Positions 25,340 through 38,879 of a DNA stretch of 64,000 bases are shown here, in pieces (position 1 is the first letter of the stretch; every line of letters begins with the position of its first letter). The stretch is from Clostridia bacterium (lineage in GTDB: Bacteria > Bacillota > Clostridia > Christensenellales > CAG-314). Both the position numbers and the translations under genes were made by a program. The stretch lies in NCBI GenBank assembly GCA_017457305.1, contig JAFTHP010000044.1, forward strand, positions 53,700 to 117,699. Reading direction: 5' to 3'. A model generated the notes under the pieces. The model was not told the origin of the DNA. It was given only the letters and a program-made list of their open reading frames with translations, and searched no databases.

Positions 25340-25370
25340 AAAAAAAGAGCAGAACTAAGGTGCTCTGCAA
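25340..25370 (-). terminator. Terminator at the left border of the element (downstream of the serine recombinase)
   Basis: Minus strand reads CAGAGCAccttagttcTGCTCTTTTTTT. Confidence 0.6.
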
Positions 25371-25429
25371 TAAGGGTTGCCTTGGCTCAAAAGAAATGCG
25401 TAGTCGCAATTACTGTGGCTACGCTTTTT

Positions 25430-27046
25430 CTATGGCAAAGTGACAAACCCAATGCCGTTATATTGAATTCTTATTTTTTGCACCCTTTTGCCGTCAATTT
25501 TTTCAGCCTTGAACACAATAACTCGTTCTATGAATTTACGGATAATCTCGCAATCAAGGTGGTCAATTTGTGTATAGGTCTTTACTAATTTCAAGAACGC
25601 ATCAACGCTAAGAGCCTTTTCGTTATTATCTGTGATGAATTTTTGGATTTCTTGAATTCTTGCATTTAACTGAGCCTGCTCATTTTCGTAAGTTTCCGTC
25701 AATTTTGCAAAGCGTTCATCAGAGATTTTACCCTCAATATTATCTTCGTAAAGGTGCTGAATAATACTATCGAGCTTAGAAACCCTAGCCAGGCTCGACT
25801 CCAATTCACGCTTATATTCCTTAAAAATCCTATTAAATTCCTGCTTGGACTGTTTTGTTATCAAGGCAATAAACTCATCTTCATGTTCTCTCGCAAAAGC
25901 CGTCACACGCTGAATATCGGCAAGGATGAGCTCTTCCAAGACGATATTTCTAATTTGATGCGATGTGCATAAACCCTTCTTTTTGCGATATGTAGCACAA
26001 ACCATATAGGCTTTATCTTCCGTCCAATCTTTACCACGTACCTGATATAACTTCGCACCACAATCCGCGCAATAGACCATACCCGAAAGGATAGGCATTT
26101 CACCGAGTCTTGAAACAACTCTATGGTTTTCGCGGATTTTTTGCACGATATCAAAGGTTTCTTGGGTAATAATCGGCTCGTGCATATCGTAGAATATAGA
26201 CCAATCGTCCTCACTATTCCATATGAATTTCTTGGATTTGTAAGATTTTTTGCGTGTTTTGAAATTGACGATTTGACCTAAATACTCACGCTTTTTAAGG
26301 ATGTCCGATACCGTTCTAGGATTCCAATCGCACCCATCATTAAGGTCACCCATGTTCGCAGGGTATTTGATGCCAAGCTCTCTAAAATGTGCGGCGGGCG
26401 TTTTTATGCCTCTTTCTCTAAGGACATTACAAATTTGGCTAGGACCATACCCCTTGACGCACAATTCAAAAATCTCCCTAACCACGCTTGCCGCCTCTTC
26501 ATCAACAATCCACTTGAATTTATCATCAGGGGATTTTATGTAGCCATAAGGCGGATTTGTACATAAAGGTTTACCAGCCTCACCTTTTGCCTTGAATACG
26601 GCACGAACCTTCTTGCTAGTATCCTTTGCGTACCATTCATTGATAATATTGAGGAAAGGGGTAAAATCGCTATCTTGTTGCTTTGCACTGTCAACACCGT
26701 TGTTAATGGCTATAAAGCGGATGTTGTGTTCAGGGAAAATAGACTCCGTGTACATACCAACGCCTAGGTAATCTCTGCCTAAACGGCTCATATCTTTTAC
26801 AATAATTACGCCAACGGCATCGTCATCTACAAGTTCCATTAAAGCCTGCCACGCGGGACGATTGAAATTTGTACCCGAGTAACCGTCATCTACGAAAAAC
26901 TCAATATTCGTAAATCCGTTATCCTCGGCATACTTTTGCAAAATAGCCTTTTGATTGGTTATGGAATTGCTATCTCCTTGAAGTTCGTCATCACGAGAAA
27001 GACGGCAATACAAGGCTGTAATTTTTTGATTATTCAGTTTTTCCAT
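25430..27046 (-). CDS. Large serine recombinase (TnpX/TndX type)
   Basis: Catalytic N-terminus [25 protein letters not shown]...[13 protein letters not shown]; recombinase and zinc-ribbon region CADCGAKLY...C; long coiled C-terminus. Start at ATG 27046 with an AAAGGAGG SD. Confidence 0.9.
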
Positions 27047-27266
27047 TGTTTGCCTCCTTTCGTGATTTGGAATTTTTACTATCGCCTGCGCCCAAACCCT
27101 TAATGGCATCAATTGTGCCGTTTTCAAAAAGGTCGATGACGTAGGCGATGGCTTTTTCTTCGCTCCAACCGAGTGATTTCTGATAATACTCAAGTAGGAG
27201 ATTGATACCTTTTTCGTTGGTATCGGTGGTTTTGCAAATGAGTGCTAATTTTTCTTTGAGTTGCAT
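27030..27266 (-). CDS. Hypothetical small protein upstream of and overlapping the recombinase gene
   Basis: 78 aa with a GGAGGT SD. Overlaps the recombinase start by 17 nt. No family recognised. Confidence 0.5.
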
Positions 27267-27325
27267 ATACGTACCTCCGTTTTTTTGGTATCATATATAT
27301 CACTCTAAACGGAAATAATATCAAG

Positions 27326-27499
27326 TCATTTTGCGCGGTATTTTGTGTCTATTTTGATACTTTTTGCGTTTGTAAGAATAAGGTCTTTTATCTTGTCTTT
27401 TATGACCTTTTTTGCGTTTTCATCGGTGGCGATTGACTCAACGATATAGAGAGTCCCACCGATTTCTTTATATGTAATTACTGTATTCTGACTATCCAT
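27326..27499 (-). CDS. TnpW-like small transposon protein (57 aa)
   Basis: Below the ORF-track cutoff. MDSQNTVITYKEIGGTLYIVESIATDENAKKVIKDKIKDLILTNAKSIKIDTKYRAK resembles, from memory, the short TnpW proteins of Tn4451-like elements. AAGAGG SD. Confidence 0.5.
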   Translation of the reverse strand: MDSQNTVITYKEIGGTLYIVESIATDENAKKVIKDKIKDLILTNAKSIKIDTKYRAK

Positions 27500-27743
27500 A
27501 TCGAACCTCTTTACCCCTTAAAGGGGAGCGGTTAAACTCCCCAGAAAGGGCTGAAATTTGCCTTGTGTTGCCTTTTGTTTTTATGCTTGACTAGTAATCC
27601 CACTCGCCCGATGTCTTTCAAAACTTTGCATCTGCGCCCCGGTGGGGGTATCTAAATCTCTACAGGATTATTATTTAACAGCGGGCGTGGGGTGTCACGC
27701 ACAAAAAGCGGAATTCAAAAGGGTAATTACCCCCTATTAAAAA

Positions 27744-28682
27744 TTAGCCGATTTTAAGCACTTTCACTGCATCCGGGCGGATAAGCTTGCCGTCCAAATG
27801 TTCGACGCCAACATATCCACGGTACGAAGAGTTTATGTACTTTTCATACAGACGGCGTATAGCAAAAGGTGTGCGCTCCGTAATCCAATAGAAACTAAAA
27901 TCGCCAAATGCAATAGGCTTTGCGCCGCTTTTAATGTCGGGCATTGCATTGCAAATGATAACCTTTTTGCCTAATAGCTTGTCCGATGATGGATGCCACA
28001 GGTAATTTCCGTTAGAATCCTTCAAGGTACGAAGCGTAAATGCCGTTGTATCGTTCATAACCCATACGGCTTTATCTCTCAATTTAGGCTCTACCGAATG
28101 GAATAACTCAATAACCTCATCAAAGGTTATGTTGCTTGAATTGCTTGTTTTACCGATTTCGGCTCCGCCATTATCTGCAAGAATACCTACAGGCTGATTT
28201 ACACCGTTGCCGTTAACAAATGCATTTACCTCGGCTTTTCCAAAACGCTGCGCATACTTTTTAAGAAGCCAACTTTCAAAGTCAAAACCGTGGTCGGCTA
28301 AAAGGTCAATGTGAATTTTAGCGATAGAGGTTAACTTGTGACTACCAAACTTGTAATTGCCGAGAATTTCCTCGTCTTCAGGAATTTTAGCGTTTTCTTC
28401 TACCCACGCGGGTTCAGCATCGGTAGCAAGCATATGCACGGCATAATCGCTTTCATACATAGGAATAACCGTACCGAGAGAACGGAAGAAATTTTCCTTC
28501 TTTAATTCTTCGGTATAGCTATTTGCCTGAGCGGCAGGAAGAATGTGTGCGCTACTATCATTGAGTTTTACATTTTCTTCTTGCGTATTAAAGTTCTGAT
28601 GCTTACGAAGAGCATTCCAAAACTCCTTTTCATAAGCACTGTTGATAGGGTTAATAAATCTTCGATTTGTGTTGTTCATCAT
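27744..28682 (-). CDS. HK97-fold major-capsid-like protein, short form without an evident delta/scaffold domain
   Basis: 312 aa. ...LPAAQANSYTEELKKENFFRSLGTVIPM...GVNQPVGIL...AVWVMNDTTAFTLRTLKDSNGNYLW...FGDFSFYWITER fits the HK97-family MCP (TIGR01554-like) pattern. Confidence 0.75.
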   Translation of the reverse strand: MMNNTNRRFINPINSAYEKEFWNALRKHQNFNTQEENVKLNDSSAHILPAAQANSYTEELKKENFFRSLGTVIPMYESDYAVHMLATDAEPAWVEENAKIPEDEEILGNYKFGSHKLTSIAKIHIDLLADHGFDFESWLLKKYAQRFGKAEVNAFVNGNGVNQPVGILADNGGAEIGKTSNSSNITFDEVIELFHSVEPKLRDKAVWVMNDTTAFTLRTLKDSNGNYLWHPSSDKLLGKKVIICNAMPDIKSGAKPIAFGDFSFYWITERTPFAIRRLYEKYINSSYRGYVGVEHLDGKLIRPDAVKVLKIG

Positions 28683-38035: not shown

Positions 38036-38063
38036 TATTGAAAAAAAGTCGATAAAACCCAAA

Positions 38064-38103
38064 GCCACACCTGTGAGCCTTAAAACTCTAGGTGTGGTTT
38101 TTT
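38064..38103 (+). terminator. Terminator after the fusion gene
   Basis: CCACACCT (38065-38072) / AGGTGTGG (38090-38097), then T-run. A diverged copy lies at 38747-38790. Confidence 0.7.
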
Positions 38104-38109
38104 CAAAAA

Positions 38110-38118
38110 TGGTATAAT
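38110..38118 (+). promoter_or_regulatory. Extended -10 promoter element
   Basis: TGGTATAAT (TGnTATAAT), about 30 nt upstream of ATG 38149. Confidence 0.5.
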
Positions 38119-38148
38119 GGTAGTGAAATTATTATATTGGAGGGGCAA

Positions 38149-38733
38149 ATGTTATCTAAAAATCAAAAAGACGAAATTATAAAAATGTATGCCGAGCTTA
38201 TTTCTACGCAAGACAGCGGGTATGAAAGGCTGAAAGCCCTAGAAAAACTGCGAGATTCCTTTGCCTCTTTAATACCTGATTGGAGTAAATTAATATCAGA
38301 GTATGCAATACAACACGGTCTTACAAGCGTATTATCAACGATTGCATTGTTAGAAAGTAAACCTGAGGATAAGCCCGAAGAAGCGCAAAGAGATATCATA
38401 GACGCAGGTGTTGCCCGAAAATGCAAATACGGCTTTTACACAACAAAAACGGACGAGCAAATCGATGCCGACATACAAGACCTAAATAATCGCATAATTT
38501 CTTATACAACAATAATGACTGTGGTAGATGAAATGTACGACAGAGAAATAATTACGCTTGAAGATTATTACAAGGCACAGGAATTAATGGGCGACAAATA
38601 TGGTATAACGCAAAAAAGTCTATTTTGGTGGAACGGCCCGCGCAAAATCGAACATAAGCCACGCAAACCATTAAAACCCGCTAGACCTTACATAAAACGA
38701 GATACGGAATATTGGGATAAATATAAAAAGTAA
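38149..38733 (+). CDS. Hypothetical protein, last gene of the element
   Basis: 195 aa from ATG 38149 (GGAGGGG SD). Basic, proline-rich C-terminus HKPRKPLKPARPYIKRD. No family recognised. Confidence 0.55.
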   Translation: MLSKNQKDEIIKMYAELISTQDSGYERLKALEKLRDSFASLIPDWSKLISEYAIQHGLTSVLSTIALLESKPEDKPEEAQRDIIDAGVARKCKYGFYTTKTDEQIDADIQDLNNRIISYTTIMTVVDEMYDREIITLEDYYKAQELMGDKYGITQKSLFWWNGPRKIEHKPRKPLKPARPYIKRDTEYWDKYKK

Positions 38734-38879
38734 ACATTAACAAAAAAGCCACACCCTTGAGCTTATAACTCTTGGATGTGGTTTCTTTGTTTTGAGCCGC
38801 CTTTTAGACCGTTTTTAGAAAATCCCTAATTAAACAGCCCAAAATCTGCTCTTTTTTTTAATATATAGTTGAATATAAA

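Follow-up and report, generated by a model that had tools for sequence, protein, structure and literature searches.

A lone-capsid element in the loop of a transcription terminator, and its family in Clostridia: a candidate phage satellite

How does a genomic island spread if it carries a single phage capsid gene, its own primase and two recombinases of different types, with no other recognisable phage or conjugation gene? The question is posed by a 64,000-nt stretch of a metagenome-assembled genome of a Clostridia bacterium (Christensenellales; contig JAFTHP010000044.1, positions 53,700 to 117,699), called the window below and numbered from its first letter. The first-pass annotation, made from the sequence, had outlined there an integrative element at 25340-38859 and likened it to a mobilisable island or a helper-dependent phage satellite, perhaps made of two nested elements. 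We find a clearly delimited, recently mobile member of a family common in gut and anaerobic Clostridia, inserted into the loop of a host transcription terminator. Its most distinctive points are a capsid protein without scaffold domain, the terminator-loop site and its membership in a conserved family. That it is a P4-like phage satellite and defence island, presumably dependent on a helper phage, is in our estimate an even call, and the alternatives are weighed below.

Borders and insertion site

Exact look-up of the neighbouring exonuclease led to four contigs of the same species, two with the element and two without it (L002 and L004; L numbers are our handles for loci). Nothing but an intrinsic terminator hairpin, AAAAAAAAGAGCAGATTTAGTTCTGCTCTTTTTTT, stands between the pullulanase gene and the exonuclease gene in the two empty-site metagenome contigs. 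The window has this hairpin cut in two, with its AA core present twice, at 25357-25358 and 38842-38843. The earlier borders were thus real, and took in both host halves of the terminator; the element itself, with exact ends from the empty-site comparison, is 25359-38843 (13,485 bp). The filled-site junctions read GAGCAGATTT/TGGGCTG and GAGCACCTT/AGTTCTGCTC, the slash marking the junction, and the dinucleotide TT (AA on the plus strand) is all that attB shares with both of them. The predicted attP junction of a circular form is AAACAGCCCAAAGGTGCTCTGCAA and the repaired attB is GAGCAGATTTAGTTCTGCTC. A crossover of 2 bp, at element ends that are imperfectly inverted, points to a serine recombinase and not to a tyrosine recombinase, and this single junction means that the 13.5 kb entered as one unit. 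The element was inserted into the loop of the pullulanase/exonuclease intrinsic terminator, with an AA/TT crossover, by its own TnpX-like, DUF4368-bearing large serine recombinase (LSR). The border features are:

25340-25358, no strand: one host part of the interrupted terminator, forming an attB half and including the AA crossover at 25357-25358 (empty-site comparison; inverted repeat I23 pairs it with 38845-38858)
25359-25429, no strand: recombinase-proximal element end (attP arm), with a hairpin 3' of the recombinase stop codon (junction comparison; terminator scan)
38734-38843, no strand: far element end, with a conserved hairpin at 38745-38787, the attP arm ...TAATTAAACAGCCCA and the AA core at 38842-38843 (far-end alignment; junction comparison)
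38844-38859, no strand: second host half of the split terminator (empty-site comparison)

The same site is filled in five further contigs, and samples ERZ27256821, SRR12529369 and ERZ28653963 contain the element. In sibling metagenome-assembled genomes the pullulanase and exonuclease genes are numbered consecutively in their accessions, which suggests that the site is empty there too. The site is polymorphic within the species, filled and empty, and the element is mobile within it; a block fixed at this position in all relatives, a possibility raised by the first-pass annotation, is contradicted. Composition agrees with a foreign unit, the tetranucleotide distance between element and host (0.371) lying far outside the range of same-size host chunks (0.098 ± 0.019); GC content is 0.398 in the element against 0.42. 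On one side the flank consists of housekeeping genes (RNase_T exonuclease, hexokinase, radical SAM), and on the other lies a starch locus (pullulanase, CBM26 proteins, amylase), which the empty-site junctions place outside the island.

The choice of a terminator loop recurs in the family. About 40 relatives share a conserved recombinase-proximal end, ...ATCCCTAAGACGCACCCTC/AA, and the far end, AA/GGGAGTTCAACTTAGGGATTTACGAAA, lies within reach in five. For these five and the window (6/6), joining the host flanks yields a terminator-like hairpin, i.e. A-tract, GC-rich stem, short loop, stem and T-tract, and the six reconstructed attB stems are all different in sequence. A T-tract begins 6-16 nt past the junction in 32 of 42 loci, against a background of 7.5%. 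The relatives' recombinases are 58-66% identical and are placed beside many different genes. Insertions in terminator loops lie at L013:820-875, L016:540-600, L031:50-105, L043:95-150 and L045:2930-2990, each paired with a junction on the recombinase side, and in the window at 25340-25358 together with 38844-38859; a few insertions (L010, L033, L058) adjoin tRNA gene ends.

The far end of the element is better conserved than the coding genes. Five distant relatives from different bacterial orders have in common a block of about 113 nt with 84-94% identity, against 75-83% for their coding genes (L013:848-960, L016:565-678, L031:75-186, L043:119-231, L045:2960-3075; window 38734-38843 aligns with it). 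The block closes with a hairpin whose stem shows compensatory changes (GACTGCAC/GTGCAGTC vs GACCACAC/GTGTGGTC). To judge from its sequence, it may hold more than an attP arm, for example a terminator, a promoter or a packaging signal, and in the window its hairpin (38745-38787) can, by prediction, stop read-through from the pullulanase gene. At the recombinase end, the terminal bases of the element pair with the remaining host stem to give a terminator-like hairpin on the minus strand (25368-25349). With a conserved hairpin at one end and a rebuilt one at the other, the element could take over termination on both sides of its site.

DUF4368 recombinases form a multi-targeting clade, one example of which has a TT core with A/T-rich flanks; the clade is already used for genome engineering, and the paper that describes it (Durrant et al. 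2022, PMC10083194) does not mention terminators, with 0 occurrences of the word 'terminator'. The element's recombinase shows the features of that clade, namely a DUF4368 domain, many different sites in the family, and a TT core with A/T-rich flanks. Its preference for terminator loops bears on why the clade is 'multi-targeting', and may be useful; for testing, the window offers att sites that are exactly known and a site that is naturally empty.

A short capsid protein and its family

Gene calls were checked with Pfam, PHROGs, PADLOC and NCBIfam, and all ten genes named by the first-pass annotation were found where it had placed them. The features between the two ends are:

25430-27046, minus: LSR, TnpX/TndX-like, 538 aa (Pfam Resolvase, Recombinase, Zn_ribbon_recom, DUF4368)
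27030-27266, minus: 78-aa open reading frame (ORF) overlapping the LSR start (called in L001 and L003; 85% identical in L098)
27326-27499, minus: TnpW-like small protein, 57 aa (Pfam TnpW 22.9 bits, under the cut-off of 25)
27744-28682, minus: HK97-type major capsid protein (MCP), 312 aa (Pfam Phage_capsid, E 4.8e-64)
28682-28969, minus: 95-aa partner protein (its stop codon shares one base with the capsid start)
28970-29233, no strand: non-coding gap after the primase gene (11-nt perfect inverted repeat 29129-29139/29218-29228, 9-nt direct repeat, 22-aa ORF)
29234-31504, minus: P4 alpha-type primase/superfamily 3 helicase, 756 aa (Pfam D5_N, DUF5906, Pox_D5; TIGR01613; phrog_1883, 1098 bits)
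31505-31807, no strand: divergent control region (minus-strand terminator 31692-31675 by terminator scan; homology to L088 ends at 31641 by blastn)
31582-31601, plus: left copy of a 20-nt direct repeat, TTGAAAAAAAGTTGAAAAAA (repeat search)
31808-32740, plus: Xer-like tyrosine recombinase, 310 aa, true start ATG at 31808 (Pfam; NCBIfam Xer-like matches all below cut-off)
32916-33953, plus: type II DNA methyltransferase, 345 aa (PADLOC MTase_II, E 2.6e-123)
33950-38035, plus: ResIII/Eco57I helicase-methyltransferase fusion, type IIG/ISP-like, 1361 aa (Pfam, with a weak T5orf172 match; PADLOC REase_MTase_IIG, E 2.9e-30)
38038-38057, plus: right copy of the 20-nt direct repeat (18/20 identical), straight after the restriction gene stop (repeat search)
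38149-38733, plus: SHOCT-domain protein, 194 aa (Pfam SHOCT_2, E 5e-5; gene call in L093)

The element's proteins had no match to terminase, portal, tail, lysis or relaxase families in Pfam, PHROGs or NCBIfam, in line with the earlier view that it is neither a prophage nor an integrative and conjugative element (ICE).

The MCP is without the N-terminal delta (scaffold) domain, since its alignments to phage relatives begin only at residue 80: with a 404-aa Heliusvirales capsid protein (38% identity) the alignment spans phage residues 80-396, and in the NCBI HK97 capsid model TIGR01554 it matches profile positions 80-385 of 385. No prohead protease was found in the element with Pfam or PHROGs. 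An AlphaFold2 model of the MCP (pLDDT 88) covers the entire mature HK97 fold, and its best matches in the PDB are the capsid of the gene transfer agent RcGTA (E 1e-22), the capsid of EcCI2, a capsid-forming phage-inducible chromosomal island (cf-PICI), and HK97 itself. The truncation is no accident of the window copy, because similarly short homologues (300-316 aa), from 91% down to 40% identity, make up more than 300 clusters in the protein database; among the best 120 homologues only two are of about 400 aa, and one of those is a fused gene call. P0072 (404 aa), considered as a delta-bearing member of the short clade, was rejected as a fused call of a 95-aa-like ORF with a capsid protein. 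Neighbour-joining places the short capsid proteins in a single clade from which phage proteins are excluded, the nearest phage homologues (Heliusvirales, Streptococcus phi-m46.1/Javan) being 36-40% identical to the MCP.

The one-base overlap of stop and start codons between the 95-aa and capsid genes suggests translational coupling. Homologues of the 95-aa protein fall into 83 clusters, and lie directly upstream of a short capsid gene in 18 of the 18 loci found. The family is absent from 50,697 phage records and is specific to these elements; the AlphaFold2 model (pLDDT 88.7) shows a compact alpha/beta fold that has no structural neighbour in PDB or BFVD. The idea that this ORF is a split-off delta domain was rejected: the summed length (95 + 312 aa) fits, but there is no similarity to phage delta domains, and the compact model is not a long helical scaffold. 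The position upstream of the capsid gene is taken in the family by one of two unrelated protein forms, either this one or, in 63 loci, a protein about 102 aa long that resembles a zinc ribbon and has two CxxC motifs (L043:9679-9990, L016:9672-9986 and 61 other loci). The zinc-ribbon protein belongs to no Pfam family, and its sole match among the 50,697 phage records is the scaffold MT838964.1, itself a family member. Homology between the two forms was considered and dismissed (hhalign probability 0.6%). That scaffold (L005) and MT837944.1 (L006) are unannotated 'Bacteriophage sp.' entries from human faeces in Mexico that carry family genes (short capsid plus zinc-ribbon protein, and primase, respectively).

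A short-capsid profile was scanned against one genome per species (80 loci) and against IMG/VR (80 loci), and neighbouring genes were mapped with probes from the window and from one complete Heliusvirales phage. In about 120 loci of Clostridia and Negativicutes the genes follow one another in the same way (primase-helicase, then small protein, 300-316-aa capsid, TnpW and TnpX-like recombinase), with hosts among Oscillospiraceae, Lachnospiraceae, Christensenellales, Syntrophomonas, Acetobacterium, Pelotomaculum, Phascolarctobacterium and others. Counts for the genome loci rest on the 79 that have a capsid ORF. A primase-helicase lies just upstream of the capsid gene in 49 of the 58 loci with enough upstream DNA, and just downstream, where 61 loci have enough DNA, there is an LSR in 56 and a tyrosine integrase in 3. 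Phage structural genes were found within 8 kb of the short capsid gene in none of the 79. In IMG/VR, all capsid proteins of 397-406 aa (at most 38% identity) stand in a terminase-portal-protease-capsid-adaptor-tail context, and all short ones in a primase/integrase context; the former serve as a positive control, as they mean that the probes detect structural genes when these are present.

Clustering of ORFs gave a fuller family order: variable cargo, regulator, HTH_17, primase-helicase, small ORFs, the protein of about 100 aa, short capsid, TnpW, integrase. Complete relatives measure 10.2-13.1 kb (n = 5), so that the family including the window spans 10-13.5 kb. The regulator slot holds either a divergent Cro/C1-type helix-turn-helix gene or a gene for a 316-390-aa zinc-finger protein, followed by an HTH_17 (AlpA/Xis-like) gene of about 71 aa. 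A 316-390-aa protein with a C-terminal cysteine-rich basic region is encoded divergently from the primase in 31 relatives (L043:5382-6485, L050:5425-6417 and 29 more); it has no Pfam match and is missing from the window element. The satellite-like gene set proposed earlier for the window copy thus holds for the whole family.

The primase matches TIGR01613, the P4-family primase model, with 248 bits against a cut-off of 108.7, and shares 49-55% identity with those of Heliusvirales and of Streptococcus Javan/phi-m46.1 phages. Strong purifying selection acts on the core genes: when the window is compared with two close relatives, the ratio of nonsynonymous to synonymous divergence (dN/dS) is 0.085-0.10 for the capsid protein, 0.08-0.17 for the 95-aa protein, 0.04-0.06 for the serine recombinase and 0.06 for the primase-helicase. 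The pair of primase and short capsid is the constant part of the family. The integrase module is sometimes swapped, with two tandem serine recombinases (21-26% identical to that of the window) or a 426-442-aa tyrosine integrase following the capsid gene (L009, L017, L047, L048, L051, L072, L101, L109, L134, L137-L139; L068, L081, L084, L087, L130, L132, L133). In four independent assemblies of the closest cargo-swapped relatives the primase is split, into 511 + 168 aa or 61 + 491 aa (L088:7328-9421, L089:7153-8863, L090:2550-4260, L091:703-2971).

To our knowledge, most of the phage satellites described so far are from Proteobacteria, from staphylococci or from one of a few further groups. A search of the open-access full-text literature turned up no account of capsid-only recombinase elements in Clostridia, and this large Clostridia family, in which a P4-type replication module goes together with one capsid gene that has no scaffold domain, is apparently undescribed.

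Life cycle, rival explanations and cargo

As a P4-like satellite, the element would be excised by its serine recombinase and replicated from an origin near the primase gene; the non-coding gap at 28970-29233, to go by its repeats, may be a replication origin or control region. Infection by, or induction of, a helper siphophage would then lead to packaging of element DNA in helper-derived particles. Candidate helpers are phages of the Heliusvirales/phi-m46.1 type, as these hold the closest phage homologues of both MCP and primase. The scaffold-less capsid protein, probably with its 95-aa partner, would co-assemble with the helper capsid protein or replace it, resulting in heads sized for about 12 kb and in interference with the helper, and the restriction-modification (R-M) cargo would repay the host for carriage. 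Tentatively, and at somewhat less than even confidence, we go further and propose a new satellite class, in which a lone, 'pre-matured' scaffold-less HK97 capsid protein builds small heads together with its partner, and in which the recombinase uses terminator loops as generic safe-harbour sites, bringing replacement terminators at both ends.

Several results weigh against a satellite life cycle. No helper phage, small terminase or cos/pac site was found, and the window holds no prophage. The non-coding DNA of the element resembles none of the 50,697 phage records, in which only the helicase coding region found a match. A circular intermediate, which the first-pass annotation had suggested looking for, did not turn up: searches with the element's own attP junction and with a family consensus gave 0 circular-junction contigs in IMG/VR and the JGI metagenomes, and the IMG/VR contigs show no terminal repeats. 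The capsid protein of HK97 is not known to assemble by itself when the delta domain is missing, so that the short MCP may not build capsids at all. The window copy also lacks the AlpA-like and Cro-like regulators found in most relatives. Finally, in L088-L091 the primase is split and yet the capsid, 95-aa protein and recombinase are intact, so that the capsid may be useful without replication.

The main alternative is a defence island in which the scaffold-less capsid acts as a dominant-negative poison of HK97-type phage head assembly, alongside the R-M cargo. Such an island would move rarely, through excision and insertion by its recombinase combined with generalised transduction, transformation or an unrecognised mobilisation route. 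A capsid protein without the domain needed for self-assembly, cargo that is consistently defence-related, an intact capsid and partner where the primase is split, and the failure to find a packaging function or a circular form would all suit it. We think it unlikely, for the capsid gene is tightly linked to the replication module and integrase in about 120 loci, i.e. is core rather than in the cargo slot, and the narrow 10-13.5 kb size range is what a limit set by head capacity would produce; the two explanations also overlap, interference and hijacking being paired in known satellites. A mobilisable transposon of the Tn4451/Tn4453 type, excised and inserted by a TnpX-like enzyme and moved by conjugative mobilisation with the phage-like genes as incidental cargo, would account for the TnpX-like recombinase, the TnpW-like gene and the multi-targeting clade. 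We regard it as highly improbable, because capsid and primase are the conserved core while integrases get swapped, and no Mob or relaxase family was matched either among the relatives' conserved gene clusters or in the ten proteins of the element (Pfam, PHROGs, NCBIfam; the oriT sequence itself was not searched for). Scarcely credible is a decayed Heliusvirales-like prophage remnant. The nearest phage homologues of capsid and primase do lie in the Heliusvirales, but the same reduced gene order is kept across many bacterial families, the short capsids form a separate clade, the core genes are under strong purifying selection, the att junction shows no damage and the site occurs both filled and empty.

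The remaining alternative concerns the right half of the element, where the variable slot beside the primase holds the methyltransferase, the type IIG-like enzyme, the Xer-like recombinase and the SHOCT protein. This could be a composite, with a tyrosine-recombinase cassette of about 6.5 kb (methyltransferase plus type IIG enzyme) inside a serine-recombinase element and the 20-nt repeats as its footprint. The 18/20 repeat brackets exactly the block from tyrosine recombinase to restriction gene (2 matches in the window, 0.09 expected by chance), and the closest cargo-swapped relative, L088 (88% capsid identity), has the same backbone with a type I system and no tyrosine recombinase. DNA homology to L088 breaks off at 31641, the start of variable cargo, which is close to the left repeat copy and yet 40 nt beyond it. 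Moreover one serine-recombinase junction bounds the whole 13.5 kb, and the cassette was never seen outside the element (five contigs). The recombinase is Xer-like and short, unlike typical mobile-element integrases, and its synonymous divergence from L098 equals that of the backbone (dS 0.55), under strong purifying selection (dN/dS 0.037). The tyrosine recombinase is therefore long-standing in the lineage rather than a recent nested arrival, and any insertion would be old. We consider such a composite, the nested-element idea of the first-pass annotation, distinctly unlikely. The enzyme could serve in dimer resolution of the circular form, in cassette capture or in control of the R-M genes. 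In one metagenome contig the same element's tyrosine recombinase is frameshifted into ORFs of 191 and 131 aa (L095:1173-2116).

In the relatives, the largest cargo ORFs are mainly type I, II and III R-M and MADS proteins. If the satellite reading is right, the family would carry R-M systems between anaerobes that have no known transfer routes for such systems. Should its capsid redirect helper heads or poison them, the mechanism would be a new one, a capsid piracy distinct from the external or internal scaffold mimics (Sid, CpmB, Rcm) and from the complete head modules of cf-PICIs.

Some details concern single genes of the element. The N-terminus of the LSR matches the TnpX structure PDB 2MHC (E 8.5e-43), and the exact protein is on record as MBQ9707283.1. 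The TnpW-like homologue in relative L043 scores 40 bits, and homologues between the capsid and recombinase genes cluster in 63 loci. No family match was obtained for the 78-aa ORF in Pfam, PHROGs or NCBIfam, and a sequence search found no relative of solved structure for the 1361-aa fusion. The SHOCT gene is bracketed by two related terminator-like hairpins, 38061-38103 and 38745-38787 (72% identical over 43 nt); as the second is the family's conserved far-end hairpin, the first looks like a duplicate of it. An Rfam scan of the element gave zero matches. Between the tyrosine recombinase and methyltransferase genes, an imperfect inverted repeat of 31 nt, the perfect core of which is 11 nt long (32748-32778/32912-32942), brackets a promoter-like site (32866-32894). 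An invertible-promoter switch was considered and set aside as unsupported, the orientation being the same in 5 of 5 contigs and each arm itself forming a local hairpin.

Outside the element, the starch locus (38880-52624) encodes pullulanase, amylase and several Listeria-Bacteroides repeat proteins with up to four CBM26 modules, which suggests a cell-surface starch-degrading complex. Three further ORFs of the window, at 7496-8947 (plus), 18326-19150 (minus) and 54362-56896 (plus), encode 483, 274 and 844 aa without Pfam match, in low-GC or strongly AT-skewed stretches.

Comparison with known systems

Tn4451 and Tn4453 share with the element a TnpX-matching catalytic domain and a nearby TnpW gene. 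They differ in that the element has no TnpZ, TnpV or TnpY and instead a satellite-like core with cargo, and in that the crossover dinucleotide of Tn4451 is GA, against AA/TT here. Tn6215 of C. difficile, a phage-transduced element of 13 kb with a serine recombinase, was considered as a described relative and set aside, since the paper on it presents it as a mobilisable transposon, with no capsid gene mentioned. Heliusvirales and phi-m46.1/Javan phages, by contrast, are complete phages of 35-80 kb; they have terminase, portal and protease genes, tail and lysis genes, and a capsid protein of 400 aa that bears the delta domain.

The SaPI-type PICIs (SaPI, pathogenicity island in Staphylococcus aureus), which belong to Gram-positive bacteria, are likewise small integrative islands with a primase/replication module. 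They rely on a helper siphophage, with which they interfere through a redirection of capsid size. SaPIs have a tyrosine integrase, the Stl repressor, a small terminase, and the scaffold mimics CpmA/B, Ccm or Rcm; Pfam, PHROGs and NCBIfam revealed no Stl, small terminase, CpmA/B, Ccm or Rcm in the element. The window copy has the primase and a serine-type junction and is without small terminase and repressor, while its relatives have Cro/C1-type and HTH_17 genes.

With the cf-PICIs (EcCI2, PDB 9GYI) the element has in common that an integrative island brings its own HK97-fold capsid, and EcCI2 is among the top structural matches. The cf-PICIs carry a full head module of protease, portal, head-tail connectors and small terminase/HNH. 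Here the capsid protein is alone and delta-less, the other head-module genes being absent from the window and from all short-capsid loci.

The likeness to P4-like satellites, which are found in Enterobacteria, extends over a size of about 11-13 kb, a P4 alpha-type primase-helicase (TIGR01613), an integrase, an anti-phage variable slot and a gene directed at the helper head, and in the window's relatives also over an AlpA/Cro-type control region. The differences are a multi-targeting LSR in place of a tyrosine integrase, hosts in Clostridia, and an HK97 capsid without scaffold domain where P4-like satellites have an external scaffold; among the element's proteins there are no homologues of Sid, Psu, Delta or Epsilon in Pfam, PHROGs and NCBIfam. 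A cos site shared with a helper was not identified, recognition of which needs a known helper. Judged by defining gene sets, the element belongs neither to the Tn4451-type transposons, prophages or ICEs nor to the P4-like satellites or cf-PICIs, and probably not to the SaPIs; by function it is closest to P4-like satellites and cf-PICIs.

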